From: a virus
Taxonomy: Duplodnaviria > Heunggongvirae > Uroviricota > Caudoviricetes
Strand: one strand, 5' to 3'
Virus record (IMG/VR): IMGVR_UViG_2778261693_000004
Span: 1-16,397 of that record
Length of the DNA: 16,397 nt
Part shown: positions 3,842 through 16,158 of the stretch, piece after piece
Layout: the number at the start of each line of letters is the position of its first letter
How positions within the stretch are numbered: position 1 is the stretch's first letter
Program-made: the position numbers and the translations under genes
The notes under the pieces: generated by a model
Seen by the model: the letters and a program-made list of their open reading frames with translations, nothing else
What the model was told of the DNA's origin: nothing
Database searches by the model: none

Positions 3842-3858
3842 AGAATTATTAGAGCAAT
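3842..3858 (-). promoter_or_regulatory. C1 operator (Op99-like) upstream of coi
   Basis: agaattATTAGAGCAAT, 15/17 to the reverse-complement consensus. Confidence 0.7.
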
Positions 3859-3924: not shown

Positions 3925-3941
3925 ATTGCTCTAATAAATTA
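3925..3941 (+). promoter_or_regulatory. C1 operator (Op99-like) upstream of coi, opposite orientation to the previous site
   Basis: ATTGCTCTAATAAATTa, 16/17 to consensus. Confidence 0.75.
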
Positions 3942-4179: not shown

Positions 4180-4389
4180 ATGGCTTTCATTCAACCAACC
4201 ATCGACGACGTTAGACATTGCTCTAACGCTTTATCTGTAGACCCTGCCGAAACCGACGCTGCCCGCACCATTGCTGAACACTACTCAAAGATATCCAATC
4301 AGGACTACCGCATCACCCAAGACGACCTGGATGACCTCACTGACACAATCGAATATCTCATGGCAACTAACCAGTTAGCCTCACAATAA
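4180..4389 (+). CDS. coi: Coi, C1 inactivator
   Basis: 69 aa, the length I recall for P1 Coi. Sits directly upstream of c1 with flanking C1 operators. GAGG Shine-Dalgarno. Confidence 0.75.
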   Translation: MAFIQPTIDDVRHCSNALSVDPAETDAARTIAEHYSKISNQDYRITQDDLDDLTDTIEYLMATNQLASQ

Positions 4390-4405
4390 ATGCACTAATA
4401 AATCT
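4389..4405 (+). promoter_or_regulatory. C1 operator-like site between coi and c1
   Basis: aATGCaCTAATAAATcT, 14/17 to consensus. Confidence 0.5.
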
Positions 4406-4499: not shown

Positions 4500-5351
4500 A
4501 TGATAAATTATGTCTACGGCGAACAACTGTACCAGGAGTTCGTCAGCTTCAGGGATCTCTTTCTAAAAAAAGCTGTTGCACGCGCCCAACACGTTGATGC
4601 CGCCAGCGACGGTCGTCCTGTTCGCCCGGTTGTCGTTCTGCCGTTCAAAGAAACGGACAGCATTCAGGCTGAAATTGATAAATGGACTTTAATGGCGCGG
4701 GAACTGGAACAGTACCCAGACCTCAATATCCCAAAGACTATTTTATATCCAGTGCCTAACATCCTTCGCGGTGTACGTAAGGTTACAACTTATCAGACAG
4801 AAGCTGTGAACAGCGTCAACATGACCGCTGGCCGCATTATTCATCTGATTGATAAGGATATTCGCATCCAAAAAAGCGCGGGGTTCAATGAGCACAGTGC
4901 GAAATACATAGAGAACCTGGAAGCAACAAAAGAGCTAATGAAGCAGTACCCGGAGGATGAAAAATTCCGTATGCGCGTACACGGCTTTAGCGAAACAATG
5001 CTGCGCGTCCACTACATTTCCAGTAGCCCTAACTACAATGATGGTAAATCAGTTAGTTACCATGTGCCACTGTGTGGCGTGTTTATCTGCGATGAAACCC
5101 TCCGTGATGGAATCATCATCAACGGTGAATTCGAGAAAGCAAAATTTAGCCTTTATGACTCCATAGAACCGATCATCTGCGACCGCTGGCCGCAGGCAAA
5201 AATATATCGCCTGGCAGATATTGAAAATGTAAAAAAACAAATTGCCATCACTCGCGAAGAGAAAAAGGTCAAATCAGCCGCATCAGTTACGCGCAGTCGT
5301 AAAACTAAGAAGGGGCAGCCAGTAAACGACAACCCCGAAAGCGCGCAATAA
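4500..5351 (+). CDS. c1: C1 prophage repressor
   Basis: 283 aa, the length I recall for P1 C1. GGAGGAGG Shine-Dalgarno. Follows coi, about 0.7 kb from loxP. Window carries nine copies of its operator motif. Confidence 0.85.
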   Translation: MINYVYGEQLYQEFVSFRDLFLKKAVARAQHVDAASDGRPVRPVVVLPFKETDSIQAEIDKWTLMARELEQYPDLNIPKTILYPVPNILRGVRKVTTYQTEAVNSVNMTAGRIIHLIDKDIRIQKSAGFNEHSAKYIENLEATKELMKQYPEDEKFRMRVHGFSETMLRVHYISSSPNYNDGKSVSYHVPLCGVFICDETLRDGIIINGEFEKAKFSLYDSIEPIICDRWPQAKIYRLADIENVKKQIAITREEKKVKSAASVTRSRKTKKGQPVNDNPESAQ

Positions 5352-5354
5352 ATT

Positions 5355-5376
5355 ATGCCCGGCATCAACCGGGCAT
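5355..5376. terminator. Hairpin between convergent c1 and antirepressor genes, possible bidirectional terminator
   Basis: ATGCCCGG-catcaa-CCGGGCAT, 8-bp stem, with A/T-rich flanks. Confidence 0.4.
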
Positions 5377-5383
5377 TCTTCCA

Positions 5384-6529
5384 TTATTCAGCCGCCACCG
5401 GTTTTAACAAGCCAGCATCGAGCAGTTTACGCGTCAACCACTGTTGTCCTTTCCCCGTTAATTGGGGCGTCAGCCGTATCTGGTAGCCATCTTCATCATC
5501 CAGCACCACTTCTTTCACTGTGAAATATCCGGCGTTTATGTACTGCTGGAACGGCACATTTTTACGCCCGCCGGACGCTATCAGAATGCCGTTCTCCCGT
5601 AACCAGGCAAACAGCGCGTTTTGCTTCAGCCCAACAACCTTTGCAAAATTACCAATCAGGATCCCCTTAGCCACTGATACACGGTCGGCAAAATCGACCT
5701 TGGGGGCTGCGGCCACCAGTTGTTGATTTAGCTGGTGGGCCTTCTGTTCCAGTAGCTGCTTTTGTTCAGCCAGCTCGGCAGCCAGGCGCAAGGCTTCAGG
5801 TAGTGTTTGGGGGATTGCGACCGGTTGCTGTTCTTTTTGCCGGAAGTAGCTGTCTTCCAGTTTTTCAAAGAATGCCCATGCTTCATCTGTGTTTACGATC
5901 TTAGACATGCGTGCCGCTCCGCGTTCGGCCCAAAGAATTACCTGGCTTGTATATTTGCTAACCAGGTGACTAGTAGTCACCAGCCTTTTAAATTCCTTTA
6001 ATTTTTAACCAGTTAAGAGATAGTAATGCTTACCTTCTTCAAAGCGATCGGAGTTGCGAGACAAATTTTTACGAATATTAGCTTCATCGGTTCCATACCC
6101 CTTAGCAAGAGTTTCGGTCGTTACTACACGCACTCCCAGCCATTCCAGAACGGGAATTTCATCAGACTGATTCTGAACAACCACCAGCTCTGATTCCTGA
6201 ACTGAAGTTGCATGAATTTTTTCTGATTTAACGTTAGTTGCTTTCATTCTGTGTGCCTCCTTGCGTGCTTCGGCTGCGACGGTTGCGTAATTCAGATGAC
6301 CCTGTTCGAGCAGGTATTCACGGATATCGGTCACAGCGATAGCCTTTAAGCGCAGATAAACATCGCGCTTATCGACATCCAGATGCGGGTATTCCTTTTC
6401 AAGAATTGCTGCGAGTTCTTTCGCTGATAGAAGAGATTTAGTGCGGATCATGTAATCCGCAATCTCGTACGATGTTATTCGTGAGTGATTTATTTCCATG
6501 AAGTGGCGTCCCTGCCAGTTAAGTAACAT
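5384..6529 (-). pseudogene. Antirepressor-like gene (ORF6N/Rha-type N-terminal domain plus KilA-C/ANT C-terminal domain) split by an in-frame TAA at 6005-6007
   Basis: ORFs 6005-6529 and 5384-5980 are in the same frame. The upstream ORF stops mid-domain (…SDRFEEGKHYYLLTG*) and the domain continues after the stop (KLKEFKRLVTTSHLV…TDEAWAFFEKLEDSYF). The downstream part carries a KilA-C-like motif (GNFAKVVGLKQNALFAWLRENGIL…PFQQYINAGYF) and begins only at a GTG. Confidence 0.6.
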
Positions 6530-6599
6530 CCTGTCACCTACTGATTAGCCCATGTCAACTAATCAACGTCGAATATAATACCATCGATTAAAGAAATAG

Positions 6600-6616
6600 C
6601 AATACATTAGAGCAAT
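6600..6616 (-). promoter_or_regulatory. C1 operator-like site upstream of the antirepressor-like gene
   Basis: caatacATTAGAGCAAT, 14/17 to the reverse-complement consensus, 71 bp upstream of the ATG at 6529. Confidence 0.55.
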
Positions 6617-11113: not shown

Positions 11114-11476
11114 TCAGCTTTCGTTGGCATTTAACTTCGTCTTTGCTTTCTCCACCAGCAACTTCCAGATGCCTATTTCATTAGCAGCCGCCTTGATGGC
11201 GGCATAAAAAGCATCTTGCTGATCGTAACGCTGGATCTGTTTTTTCAGTTTTGCCTCCACCAATTTAATTTCATTACGTGCTTTCTGAAGCCGCATCACC
11301 GCCCGGTTACGTCTGTTCTTGTATAGCGTGTTAATCTCTGACAATTGCTTTAATTTACCAGCCTGACTGCGGATTATCGCCTCCCTGGCTTCTGCCGTGC
11401 GTCTCATCTGATCTCTTAAGAGTTCACCGTTTTCGATAATTCTTTCAAGGTGTTTGATGTGATCTGCAACTCTCAT
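11114..11476 (-). CDS. Hypothetical 120-aa basic, probably coiled-coil protein; last gene of a five- or six-gene minus-strand operon
   Basis: Start overlaps the stop of the upstream 293-aa gene. Lys/Arg/Glu-rich heptad-like sequence. Confidence 0.6.
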   Translation of the reverse strand: MRVADHIKHLERIIENGELLRDQMRRTAEAREAIIRSQAGKLKQLSEINTLYKNRRNRAVMRLQKARNEIKLVEAKLKKQIQRYDQQDAFYAAIKAAANEIGIWKLLVEKAKTKLNANES

Positions 11477-12354
11477 ACTTCACCCTCGCTTGTATCACCA
11501 GCGTCCACCAACGACAATAAAGCCCTGGCCATCTTATGAACCAACAGTGCATCAATAATGCCAAGCGTATGCCCCGGCTTAATGTTTAATGCTGCCTCAA
11601 GATGACACCTTTCCAGACCGCTTTTCTCGGCTTGTTTATGATGATATGGCGTAATAACGTCGCCCAAAACACGGCTAATTCTTTCTCGTAATTGCTGGGT
11701 GCCAGCACACTTGATCGCTGTATCGTGGAGACGGTTAACCAGTTCGCGATAAACATGCGGCTTAATGCGGATACGTTCACCGGTGACGCCCTTTCCTGGC
11801 GTAGGCACCGAACTATCCGGAATATCCGGATAGTTGCCAGCCAGTCTACGCAAAACAGCCTTAATTGCATCAATACGGTCATCATCAACTTTTTCTACAA
11901 TATTGGAATTTAAATACTTCGAAGCCTTGCTATGCCAATCGCTGGTTTTAGGGTCTTGTCCATCCATCAAACGCCAAGCTTCAGCGATTAACTCATAGCC
12001 AGTAACAGTGGCTTCCTGCGCATCACCAATCAGTTGTGTGATCTCTCTTTCAAGCATGCTTAGAGCGTTAGGCATTGGTTTTTCTTCCGGTACTACTGGA
12101 ACGGGGGGAGCGGCGTAGACCTCAATAATTCCATTATCAATAGGCCATTCTCCATCCTTGAGGTAGTCACTTGTGCCGTCAACTTGCTGTTCTGCAATGT
12201 GGAATGCACCTATTGGTTTTGCTTCCAGTGATGCCAGAGCAATTCGTGCCAGTTCTTCCGCTTCTTCTGCTGGCAGTACAACGTTGCTACCAGGTCCGTA
12301 TGTTTCGCGCCACTGCTTGATTGTCAGTAGTCGCTCTTTGGTAATAGTGGTCAT
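11473..12354 (-). CDS. Hypothetical 293-aa protein
   Basis: Long ORF overlapping both neighbours by 4 nt (operon coupling). Sequence not recognised. Confidence 0.65.
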   Translation of the reverse strand: MTTITKERLLTIKQWRETYGPGSNVVLPAEEAEELARIALASLEAKPIGAFHIAEQQVDGTSDYLKDGEWPIDNGIIEVYAAPPVPVVPEEKPMPNALSMLEREITQLIGDAQEATVTGYELIAEAWRLMDGQDPKTSDWHSKASKYLNSNIVEKVDDDRIDAIKAVLRRLAGNYPDIPDSSVPTPGKGVTGERIRIKPHVYRELVNRLHDTAIKCAGTQQLRERISRVLGDVITPYHHKQAEKSGLERCHLEAALNIKPGHTLGIIDALLVHKMARALLSLVDAGDTSEGEV

Positions 12355-12866
12355 GCCGCGTTTCCTTCTTTCTTATTAACAATTACACCGTCATATATTT
12401 CATTAAGGTGCCCTCTCAACTCCATGCGCCTTAATGCAGATAACATGTAATCGCATTCAACCTGCTTATTTCCAGTAAATGGCTTATCGTCAGGATTACC
12501 CCAACAGCAATTACCCTTGGGCCACCCATGTACTTTCCGTACTCTTCCGTTAACAACGTGAAGTAATCCCCAGCCAGGTGGTAAATCCTCAATTGAAATA
12601 ATTCCCGGCTCACTAATAAAGAATCGCCAGTCGCCCATTCCAAGAGACGGATTTTTACGAAAACGCTTTTTTCTATCTGCCAACAAGTCAGCACGAGAAC
12701 ACTTCGCCTCTATCAGGCATGATGCTGAATTTCTGAATCCCATAGCATCTGGCTGTTCTCCGGTACTGGTTACAGCTATAAAGCGGTCATGAAAACAAAC
12801 CTTGAACCCGTTGCGCTTAAGGAACTTGTACGCAATCTGACAGAGTTCGCGGTGTGTTAACGCCAT
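12351..12866 (-). CDS. Putative PD-(D/E)xK-fold nuclease (MmcB-like)
   Basis: 171 aa with a D…E-x-K signature (…GEQPDAMGFRNSASCLIEAKCSRADLLAD…). ATG overlaps the stop of the upstream PP-loop ORF. Confidence 0.55.
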   Translation of the reverse strand: MALTHRELCQIAYKFLKRNGFKVCFHDRFIAVTSTGEQPDAMGFRNSASCLIEAKCSRADLLADRKKRFRKNPSLGMGDWRFFISEPGIISIEDLPPGWGLLHVVNGRVRKVHGWPKGNCCWGNPDDKPFTGNKQVECDYMLSALRRMELRGHLNEIYDGVIVNKKEGNAA

Positions 12867-12867
12867 A

Positions 12868-13234
12868 TCACTCTCCTTTGATGCGAATGCCAGCGTCAGA
12901 CATCATATGCAGATACTCAACTGCATCCTGAACCCATTGACCGCCAATCCCGTAATAGCGATGCGTAATGATGTCGATAGTTACTAACGGGTCTTGTTCG
13001 ATTAACTTCCGCAGAAACTCTTCCAGGTCACCAGTGCAGTGCTTGATGACAGGAGTTTTCCCAGGATGGCGAACAACAAGAAACTGATTTCCGACTTCAC
13101 GGACTTCGTTGCTTTCCAGTTCTGCTATCCATAAAAATGAAATGGACGCTAACGCCAGCTTTTCGCTGTGCTTCCATCAGATGAACGAGATAAGCCGATG
13201 TTCGTCCACCTGAAAAGCTGACGACTTGATGCAT
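12868..13234 (-). pseudogene. PP-loop (SGGxxS) ATP-pyrophosphatase-like gene, apparently frameshifted
   Basis: ATG at 13232-13234 gives MHQVVSFSGGRTSAYLVHLMEAQRKAGVSVHFIFMDSRTGKQRSP*. A second frame overlapping it by about 80 nt continues to 12868 (…NQFLVVRHPGKTPVIKHCTGDLEEFLRKLIEQDPLVTIDII…). The switch lies near a T5 run / GGAAAG around 13100-13135. Confidence 0.45.
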
Positions 13235-13243
13235 ACTCACGGT

Positions 13244-13822
13244 TTATTCCTGAATGCGCTTAAACTCGATTACCCATACCAACGGGTTAGATAGCCAGTT
13301 ATCCTGCCCGTAAATACTGCGCCAGATATCACCAAAACCAACGCGATAAACAGCTTCAGATGGCGTAATCTTGTACGTCGCCGGAGTTGCGCCTTCTGCT
13401 TTAGCATCTTCCTCGCTCATGTCATGCAGCCGTTCCACACGCACGTCGGTAATTTCCAAAAGAATGCGCGATGCCCAGCGCGGCATGTGAATTGATGGCG
13501 TCCACTTTTCTGATACTGGTTTATTACAAACCTCGACCGGAACCCGGTGCGTTTGTTCTGTCCAGGAGTTACGCACGCTTGCGCGATAAACCAGCGTTGC
13601 GACGTCCGTCGCTTTGCCATGTACCCGGTAGGTTTCGCGAACCCAAATACGATCGCCCGGTTGACCATATGGACAATGCTTGGCAAGCAACTCTGCGGCC
13701 ACTGCCCGTCCATAGAATTTTTCTTCAACAATCCTGCGAGTCTGTGTTTTATTCCCGCCAAGAATTGCCCGGACCATCTCATCGTTAAAAATCATGCCGC
13801 GCTCTTTCACTTCGCCTTTCAT
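13244..13822 (-). CDS. ASCH-domain-like protein
   Basis: 192 aa. N-terminal MIFNDEMVRAILGGNKTQTRR fits the ASCH G-x-K-x-x-T-x-R signature. GGGGG Shine-Dalgarno. Confidence 0.6.
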   Translation of the reverse strand: MKGEVKERGMIFNDEMVRAILGGNKTQTRRIVEEKFYGRAVAAELLAKHCPYGQPGDRIWVRETYRVHGKATDVATLVYRASVRNSWTEQTHRVPVEVCNKPVSEKWTPSIHMPRWASRILLEITDVRVERLHDMSEEDAKAEGATPATYKITPSEAVYRVGFGDIWRSIYGQDNWLSNPLVWVIEFKRIQE

Positions 13823-13831
13823 GCATCCCCC

Positions 13832-13918
13832 TTACCCATGTGCGACGATGCCGCCAAAAGTGATAGAGAACAGCCAGAAATAGATCGCGGCCATAATGAT
13901 TTTGAATGCCGTGTTCAT
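13832..13918 (-). CDS. Small hydrophobic peptide (28 aa), first ORF of the operon
   Basis: MNTAFKIIMAAIYFWLFSITFGGIVAHG with AGGAG 9 nt upstream. Its stop lies 9 nt before the ASCH gene's ATG. Confidence 0.3.
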   Translation of the reverse strand: MNTAFKIIMAAIYFWLFSITFGGIVAHG

Positions 13919-13945: not shown

Positions 13946-13977
13946 ACATGCCGCGCCTTGCGGCATGTTTTTATTTT
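13946..13977 (+). terminator. Plus-strand rho-independent terminator in the leader of a minus-strand operon
   Basis: ACATGCCGC-gcctt-GCGGCATGT (9-bp GC-rich stem) followed by TTTTTATTTT. No plus-strand gene upstream. Confidence 0.45.
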
Positions 13978-13991
13978 CACTTTCTCTGTTT

Positions 13992-14008
13992 TAAAAATCA
14001 TTATTTAT
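13992..14008 (-). promoter_or_regulatory. C1 operator in front of the ASCH/PP-loop/nuclease operon
   Basis: ttATTTATTAGAGCAAT, 15/17 to the reverse-complement consensus. Confidence 0.7.
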
Positions 14009-14016
14009 TAGAGCAA

Positions 14017-14523
14017 TTATTGTTGATGGAGAAGCGCGTTTTCATACTCCCTGACCATTAACGTAAGCACGCCGTGCCTCCTGAAAACACGCGCCACTTC
14101 AATCTTATCTTCCAGCGCGAACGCAATTTTGCTTAGACCAATTTTCTTAAGGAGATCAATCTTTGCTGGACCGTCATTTCTGTCATCGGTGGCGGGACGC
14201 ATAGATAGCAAAGGCTCTGCCCCATTTGTTACGTGCTTACGCAACCAGGCTCGTGTTTTATCCCTGGCTATCTCACAGCGCCCGGTTACAAACCAGAGCG
14301 TGTAAATGCTGGACAACTGGCGCACCATATCAATAACTGGAGTGATGGAAGCATCAGTGTCACAGGCAAGGTTAAACTCGTTCCAGTGCTCTGTTAATGC
14401 ACCGTTGCCAGGCGGTGGAAGTAAATGCAGCCTGTCTTCCGTTGCCTCCGATATCGTTCCATCAATATCTACTATGACAATGTACGGACGTTCCTGGTGT
14501 GCGTGTTTATTGAAAATACTCAA
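14017..14523 (-). CDS. HAD-superfamily phosphatase (polynucleotide 3'-phosphatase-like DxDGT motif)
   Basis: 168 aa with motif I VIVDIDGTIS. TTG start with GAGGAGG Shine-Dalgarno 4 nt upstream. Confidence 0.7.
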   Translation of the reverse strand: MSIFNKHAHQERPYIVIVDIDGTISEATEDRLHLLPPPGNGALTEHWNEFNLACDTDASITPVIDMVRQLSSIYTLWFVTGRCEIARDKTRAWLRKHVTNGAEPLLSMRPATDDRNDGPAKIDLLKKIGLSKIAFALEDKIEVARVFRRHGVLTLMVREYENALLHQQ

Positions 14524-16092: not shown

Positions 16093-16109
16093 ATTGCTCT
16101 AATAAAAAA
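16093..16109 (+). promoter_or_regulatory. C1 operator, proximal site of an inverted pair
   Basis: ATTGCTCTAATAAAaaa, 14/17 to consensus. Confidence 0.6.
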
Positions 16110-16141: not shown

Positions 16142-16158
16142 GGAATTATTAGAGCAAT
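16142..16158 (-). promoter_or_regulatory. C1 operator, distal site of the inverted pair
   Basis: ggaattATTAGAGCAAT, 14/17 to the reverse-complement consensus. Confidence 0.6.

Follow-up and report, generated by a model that had tools for sequence, protein, structure and literature searches.

The window analysed here, a stretch of 16,397 nucleotides (nt) of the caudoviral record IMGVR_UViG_2778261693_000004, derives from a P1/P7-like phage-plasmid (Punavirus), with megablast identities of 95-99% to P7, P1, SJ46 and JL22. A block of minus-strand genes located after pap is most probably a C1-repressed, dispensable and mosaic accessory operon that has been scarred by a deletion in this window. 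The original prediction had described positions 12351-13918 as an operon in which an ASCH domain gene, a PP-loop ATPase-like gene and a PD-(D/E)xK nuclease-like gene are combined, possibly as a nucleic-acid modification or anti-restriction module. The co-oriented open reading frames (ORFs) are indeed present on the minus strand where it placed them, and both the ASCH and the nuclease-like assignments are confirmed at the level of fold. However, the PP-loop call corresponds to a 36-codon deletion stump and not to a gene, and the three-enzyme pairing therefore does not exist in the window.

In the annotated P1 and P7 records the region is the operon following pap. It is named pmgT-pmgU-pmgV in P1, behind the 'monovalent C1-controlled operator OpmgT; former Op88'. 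In P7 it runs from upf86.8 to upf90.8 and is called the hea operon, and the operator in front of it is labelled 'Op(hea); predicted to regulate expression of hea operon'. Comparison with P1, P7, SJ46 and JL22 places the operon of the window right behind pap, in the same orientation, and ahead of upfM-hot-lxr. Its first gene encodes a homologue of PmgT/Upf86.8 and its last gene is pmgV. The reservation of the original prediction, that these might simply be pmg/upf genes of P1, was well placed: the ASCH protein is the PmgT homologue, the 120-amino-acid (aa) protein is PmgV, and the others are relatives of P7 Upf89.0 and Upf89.5. Unlike the P7 hea operon, the window has neither upf87.4 and upf87.6 nor the full ea22-like upf88.3, and carries instead a phosphoadenosine phosphosulfate (PAPS) reductase stump joined to the 3′ end of ea22.

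The junction between these two fragments was located with a 651-base query (12800-13450), which splits into two megablast arms across 473 plasmids, the arms meeting at 13126-13128. Plasmids with a 290-aa PAPS-reductase gene behind the ASCH gene match the right arm (13126-13450) at 95-99% identity; one of them is NZ_CP134391.1, where the product is annotated as 'phosphoadenosine phosphosulfate reductase family protein'. For the left arm (12800-13128), an ead/Ea22-like gene of pJIE250_3 shows 100% identity at its 3′ end. Both arms contain the trinucleotide TAT at 13126-13128, that is, a 3-bp microhomology. By comparison with the intact gene of NZ_CP134391.1, 109 of 873 nt of the PAPS-reductase gene are retained and encode MHQVVSFSGGRTSAYLVHLMEAQRKAGVSVHFIFMD. 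The stump reads through 36 authentic codons, then through 9 out-of-frame codons in ea22 sequence, and stops at 13097. The ea22 gene retains 261 of 681 nt. Its frame differs from that of the stump, and this promoterless remnant was overlooked in the original prediction. As in the lambdoid early-left region, it is followed by the gene for a 171-aa protein. Lambda ea22 shares 96.5% identity with it at the 3′ end, but the remnant consists of the last 86 codons only, without a start codon. Illegitimate recombination at the 3-bp microhomology has joined codon 36 of the PAPS-reductase gene to the last 86 codons of ea22, leaving two dead fragments.

The PP-loop signature itself is genuine. A SGGxDS-type motif is present as SFSGGRTS, at residues 6-13 counted from the ATG (8-15 of the 47-aa ORF with a GTG start), and the first 36 residues including this loop are 97% identical (35/36) to the intact 290-aa protein. 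The stump matches the phage PAPS-reductase family phrog_424 with an E value of 1e-8 over residues 2-38 only, and scores 13.6 bits against PF01507, under the Pfam cut-off of 22.5. The complete nucleotide-binding domain and the C-terminal region, which make up about 290 aa in the phage family related to SspD and DndC, are not present, 36 of 290 codons remaining. Since the other 254 residues are deleted, we infer that the stump is enzymatically inert. It leaves an untranslated gap of 230 nt, which may lower expression of the downstream genes. P7 upf87.6 was also considered as a homologue of the PP-loop gene and was ruled out, BLASTP showing no relation to the PAPS-reductase protein.

The junction is rare: among 72,556 plasmids and 5,426 complete E. 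coli genomes, a single entry of each set has the same arrangement (NZ_CP135674.1). This rarity is what an assembly or sequencing artefact in an element with an intact PAPS-reductase gene might produce, but we consider such an artefact very improbable. NZ_CP135674.1 is a complete, independently deposited plasmid with a 100% identical junction, and is related to the window without being identical to it, since it additionally has ISVsa5 inserted in the 171-aa gene. The element of the window has lost other parts too, since pacA and pacB are missing and lpa is truncated, and its closest relatives measure 61-77 kb against 94 kb for P1. In RefSeq the identical sequence is already present, and both fragments are marked as pseudogenes: the NCBI Prokaryotic Genome Annotation Pipeline (PGAP) describes the stump of NZ_CP135674.1 as 'incomplete; missing C-terminus' and the ea22 piece as 'incomplete; missing N-terminus'.

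An intact 290-aa PAPS-reductase gene occurs in more than 25 P1-like plasmids. The undeleted order can be read in two P1-like viral contigs (L032 and L034), where the ASCH gene is followed by the PAPS-reductase gene, several further genes, an ea22-like gene and the 171-aa gene. There the counterpart of the 260 nt of the window spans 3.7-4.1 kb, so that some 3.5-3.9 kb are missing from the window. Both frames are open across 13097-13176, and a translational frameshift could in principle join the two fragments in a single functional chimera. Such an event would require a +1 or -2 shift, and its product would be a single beta-alpha-beta unit of a Rossmann-like fold attached to a C-terminal fragment. 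No canonical slippery site was seen and the junction is found in a single lineage, hence without sign of selection; on these grounds we reject the fusion, whose probability we regard as negligible. The two plasmids closest to the window carry further lesions in the operon that differ from each other: ISVsa5 in NZ_CP135674.1, and a shortening in pMRE162 (NZ_CP119403.1), where the distance from PmgV to PmgS is about 1.5 kb, compared to about 3.1 kb in the window. These differing lesions point to continuing decay of the locus in this lineage.

The neighbourhoods of the ASCH and 171-aa genes were then compared over 80 viral and 80 genomic loci, and a conserved module of ASCH protein, PAPS reductase and nuclease was rejected on both sets. 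Among the viral contigs with a near-identical 171-aa gene, the gene directly upstream is ea22-like in 59 of 80, the commonest prophage arrangement, while an ASCH-family gene is found in 19 of 80 and a PAPS reductase in 7 of 80. Around ASCH-family genes from different species, a PAPS reductase lies within 4 kb in 6 of 80 loci and the 171-aa family in none of 80. Recurrent neighbours of the ASCH family are tyrosine integrases, a C5 DNA methyltransferase, RecT, RdgC and a DUF5131-like protein; this neighbourhood is the accessory early region of temperate phages. In the diverse bacterial genomes sampled (loci L092-L171), members of the ASCH/PmgT family are present in the early regions of prophages from many phyla.

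An intact early module for nucleic-acid modification or anti-restriction, in which an ASCH reader or hydrolase, a PP-loop ATPase and a PD-(D/E)xK nuclease would act together, could draw on the authentic SGGRTS motif, on some relatives that have the ASCH gene next to a complete PAPS-reductase gene, on the resemblance of the intact protein to sulfurtransferases of the SspD and DndC type, and on the frequent proximity of ASCH-family genes to C5-methyltransferases in prophages. The truncation, with its frameshift, stop codon and pseudogene annotation, refutes it for this window. The neighbourhood counts show that it is not conserved elsewhere, the usual partner of the 171-aa gene being ea22, and PADLOC returned no defence-model match for the 192-, 171- or 120-aa proteins. 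A literature search on ASCH together with PAPS reductase in phages yielded nothing specific. We hold the module proposed in the original prediction to be highly unlikely. The intact 290-aa protein of the relatives (NZ_CP134391.1, locus L005, 5237-6109; also L032 and L034) is closest to the SspD and DndC phosphorothioation sulfurtransferases, with an E value of 1.5e-13 against the PADLOC SspD model.

What is conserved in P1-like elements is the frame of the operon. The promoter-operator-leader block, the first gene (ASCH/PmgT family) and the last gene (pmgV) are fixed, and different gene sets occupy the interval between the ASCH gene and pmgV in P1, P7, SJ46, JL22 and several plasmids. These intervening genes form a cassette that is exchanged among P1-like elements and lambdoid prophages. 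The segment from pmgT to humD has been described as 'highly variable region 8' of P1-like phage-plasmids, and in JL22 pmgT is replaced by a cluster with a methyltransferase, ea22 and the 171-aa gene, lysogeny being unaffected (PMC9603915). In P1, pmgT, pmgU and pmgV are non-essential by CRISPR interference and in earlier data cited in the same study (PMC10695390). The operon of the window would likewise be dispensable for plaque formation.

The assignment of the operon to C1 control, also part of the original prediction, is supported by homology of its operator, ATTGCTCTAATAAATAA, to the annotated P1 Op88. The site lies just outside the interval 12351-13918, departs at 2 positions from the C1 consensus ATTGCTCTAATAAATTT, abuts the pap stop codon and overlaps the promoter. 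Its position is identical to that of the annotated P1 and P7 operators. When up to 3 mismatches were allowed, the whole window yielded 8 C1-operator matches, where chance alone would give 0.1. Identity among the window, P1, P7 and SJ46 is 99% over the 216 bases that run from the operator up to the first large gene and take in promoter, leader and a small ORF. Promoter coordinates were transferred from P1 by alignment, and a scan of the window itself gave just a weak match near 13973-14016. Inactivation of C1 would lead to early transcription of the operon from the promoters that the Op88-type operator overlaps.

The 192-aa product of the first gene shows 84% identity to P7 Upf86.8. Its identity to P1 PmgT, over the first 240 residues of the latter, amounts to 43% (E 3e-50), and PmgT is therefore also an ASCH protein. 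Its score against PF04266 (ASCH) is 16.9 bits, with an E value of 0.011 and a gathering cut-off of 21.2, and 11 of 50 homologues match ASCH at E <= 0.01. Searches of the PDB by phmmer and by profile found no match for this protein, and those with the 171-aa protein gave non-significant matches only; a fold search was thus needed. It identified the PUA-like beta-barrel of the ASCH fold. The family is very large, comprising 43,091 clusters at 50% identity (E <= 0.001). The protein carries the threonine-type version of the octapeptide GxKxx(E/T)xR, as defined in bioRxiv 10.64898/2026.02.27.708502, in the form G23-N-K25-T-Q-T28-R-R30. Across 50 diverse homologues K25, T28, R29, R30 and E143 do not vary, and at least 90% of these proteins have G23. 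An hhalign comparison sets E143 opposite E74 of E. coli YqfB, whose sequence was checked against 1te7 (103/103 residues agree). In YqfB, activity is abolished by K21A, T24A and R26A and slowed 100- to 1000-fold by E74A (PMC6972931). A 2026 preprint reports that ac4C (N4-acetylcytidine) was removed from tRNA by all 19 ASCH proteins tested (bioRxiv 10.64898/2026.02.27.708502).

This YqfB-type catalytic motif suggests that the protein is an N4-acylcytidine amidohydrolase. It would act with a Lys-Thr-Glu arrangement on N4-acylated cytidine, either free or in tRNA/RNA. YqfB (PDB 1te7/9kyf; PF04266) nevertheless differs in several respects: it has 103 aa, whereas the window protein has 192, with insertions and an extra C-terminal helical part, and the latter scores under the Pfam threshold, is phage-encoded and is predicted to be under repressor control. 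A more specific proposal can be made, in which the PmgT-family ASCH protein would be an active early amidohydrolase removing N4-acyl groups, directed at ac4C34 of the host elongator tRNA-Met or at a defence-relevant N4-modified cytosine, and the MmcB-like nuclease would be an independent early nucleic-acid effector. We regard this proposal as unlikely.

Several observations weigh against our interpretation of the locus. The ASCH protein falls under the Pfam gathering score and has no sequence-level match in the PDB. The N-terminal motif was matched by inspection, and the alignment with YqfB covers 30 columns at low probability. The 19 ASCH proteins shown to act on ac4C include none from phages (bioRxiv 10.64898/2026.02.27.708502). 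C1 control is deduced here from homology to P1 Op88. Finally, the exact undeleted ancestor, with a PAPS-reductase left arm and an ea22 of the pJIE250_3 type, was found in no record. For this reason the event may have been inter-element recombination instead of a simple deletion, an exchange between two types of cassette being just as probable as loss by an internal deletion.

For the 171-aa protein, the fold search revealed the alpha-beta-beta-beta-alpha-beta core of restriction-endonuclease-like enzymes. The closest solved relative is a DUF1052/MmcB-like structure, PDB 3dnx (SPO1766). Residues D40, E53 and K55, which correspond to the catalytic D...(D/E)-x-K signature, are invariant in 31 homologues, and the segment D..IE-x-K-x-SR-x-DF-x-AD aligns with D...E-C-K of 3dnx. 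No Pfam match was obtained at E <= 0.1 and the profile comparison with 3dnx gave an E value of 0.25; the protein is thus a structural relative of PF06319 and not a Pfam member. NCBIfam also has no match for it, and no useful match for any intact protein of the operon. In PHROGs it falls into families of unknown function, with an additional weak match to a 'DNA repair protein' family (E 0.003). Its homologues, all labelled hypothetical, are confined to Enterobacterales prophages and plasmids, where they stand beside ea22, whereas PF06319 (COG5321) is mostly alphaproteobacterial and chromosomal. The present name of PF06319 is MmcB-like. 3dnx has been classified as a DUF1052/PF06319/COG5321 structure in group 92 of the PD-(D/E)XK superfamily (PMC3424549). 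The gene has 99.4% DNA identity to P7 upf89.0, and its product would be a metal-dependent nuclease of the DUF1052/MmcB-like branch.

Both folds conflict with existing labels. RefSeq calls P7 Upf86.8 (NC_050152.1, 5350-5931) a 'DNA primase' and P7 Upf89.0 (NC_050152.1, 3269-3784) a 'minor tail protein'. Given the ASCH and PD-(D/E)xK folds, these labels look mis-transferred, and the historic 'putative morphogenetic' name of PmgT also looks wrong. Apart from what the P1 and P7 records call these genes and their products, nothing in the analysis pointed to a structural role in the virion. A morphogenetic or virion function of the products is very improbable, since one fold is an ASCH barrel of enzyme type and the other a PD-(D/E)xK nuclease core, the P1 genes are non-essential, and JL22 still lysogenises with such a cluster in place of pmgT. 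Furthermore, the C1 operator points to early expression, and the P1 record annotates no late promoter for the operon.

The four larger genes of the operon, for the ASCH protein, the 171-aa protein, a 293-aa protein and PmgV, are all intact in the window. The start codon of the 293-aa gene overlaps the stop codon of the gene upstream, and the two are thus translationally coupled. Both ends of its product match P7 Upf89.5 (432 aa), but the centre (11843-12213) is different and shorter. A protein of equal length (293 aa) is annotated in pJIE250_3, and in NZ_CP135674.1 PGAP takes just the N-terminal 113 codons as a partial gene. PADLOC gave a marginal PglZ match for this protein (E 0.001). PmgV belongs to phrog_4403 (E 6e-78), and its DNA is 96.6% identical to P1 pmgV and 99.6% to that of P7.

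Features of the operon and its control region, with coordinates in the window.
Feature	Coordinates	Strand	Remarks
C1 operator (= P1 OpmgT/Op88, P7 Op(hea))	14001-14017	-	15/17 consensus positions; right after pap stop codon
Predicted sigma-70 promoters P1pmgT and P2pmgT	13973-14016	-	overlap the operator; transferred from NC_005856.1
GC-rich leader hairpin, 9-10 bp	13946-13968	-	-22.2 kcal/mol, z -3.7; invariant in P1, P7, SJ46
Small hydrophobic ORF	13832-13918	-	28 aa from the ATG used in the original prediction; 44 aa from upstream ATG
ASCH-fold protein, PmgT/Upf86.8 family, 192 aa, intact	13244-13822	-	GxKxxTxR motif and E143
PAPS-reductase/PP-loop stump (pseudogene), 47-codon ORF	13097-13240	-	SFSGGRTS
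Recombination/deletion junction	13126-13128		3-bp TAT microhomology; alignment of window, L005 (NZ_CP134391.1) and L009
ead/Ea22-like gene 3′ remnant	12868-13128	-	last 86 codons and stop; no start codon
PD-(D/E)xK-fold protein, P7 Upf89.0 equivalent, 171 aa, intact	12351-12866	-	own AAGGAG ribosome-binding site
Mosaic protein related to EaA and Upf89.5, 293 aa	11473-12354	-	ATGA start/stop overlap
PmgV (P7 Upf90.8), 120 aa, last gene of block	11114-11476	-	coiled-coil-like; 4-nt ATGA start/stop overlap

Between the operator and the ASCH gene lies the 28-aa hydrophobic ORF, MNTAFKIIMAAIYFWLFSITFGGIVAHG, which is preceded by an AGGAG Shine-Dalgarno sequence. It is kept in P1 with one synonymous change and is left unannotated in the P1 and P7 records, while SJ46 and JL22 annotate a 44-aa 'membrane protein' at this position. 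A family profile search with the ORF found no match. The leader hairpin resembles an intrinsic terminator on the plus strand, where a T-run follows it, and has no U-tail on the transcribed minus strand. Its role may be to stabilise the leader or to block antisense transcription. Rfam detected no RNA family anywhere in the window. Upstream of the operon, the 168-aa ORF at 14017-14523 encodes a HAD phosphatase (PF25109, E 3.5e-11).

The seven other C1-operator-like sites are located at 1804-1820, 3842-3858, 3925-3941, 4389-4405, 6600-6616, 16093-16109 and 16142-16158. Their positions suggest that they match the c1/coi/cre immunity region, Olpa (Op94) and the pmgR operators Op86a/Op86b of P1. Between c1 and pdcB (window 5351-6531), counterparts are lacking for the P1 terminase genes pacA and pacB and for two-thirds of lpa at its 3′ end. 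In their place, the adjacent ORFs 6005-6529 and 5384-5980 match successive halves of the Ant/KilAC anti-repressor profile (phrog_63, positions 1-168 and 178-367). Judged by these matches they look like the halves of a single gene that has been split and whose N-terminus is Lpa-like. As a whole, the element probably represents a defective plasmid of the P1 type.

The locus is thus ordinary for the most part, being already recognised as a hypervariable and dispensable region of P1-like phage-plasmids. The 'PP-loop ATPase' of the window should not enter gene counts or be cited in support of a three-enzyme module. The pair formed by the ASCH gene and an intact PAPS-reductase gene, adjacent in relatives but absent here, may merit separate study. 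For a very abundant family of prophage proteins, the conserved residues of YqfB type provide a hypothesis that is cheap to test. If the proposal of an active early amidohydrolase proved true, ac4C erasure would be a widespread phage activity in host takeover or counter-defence.

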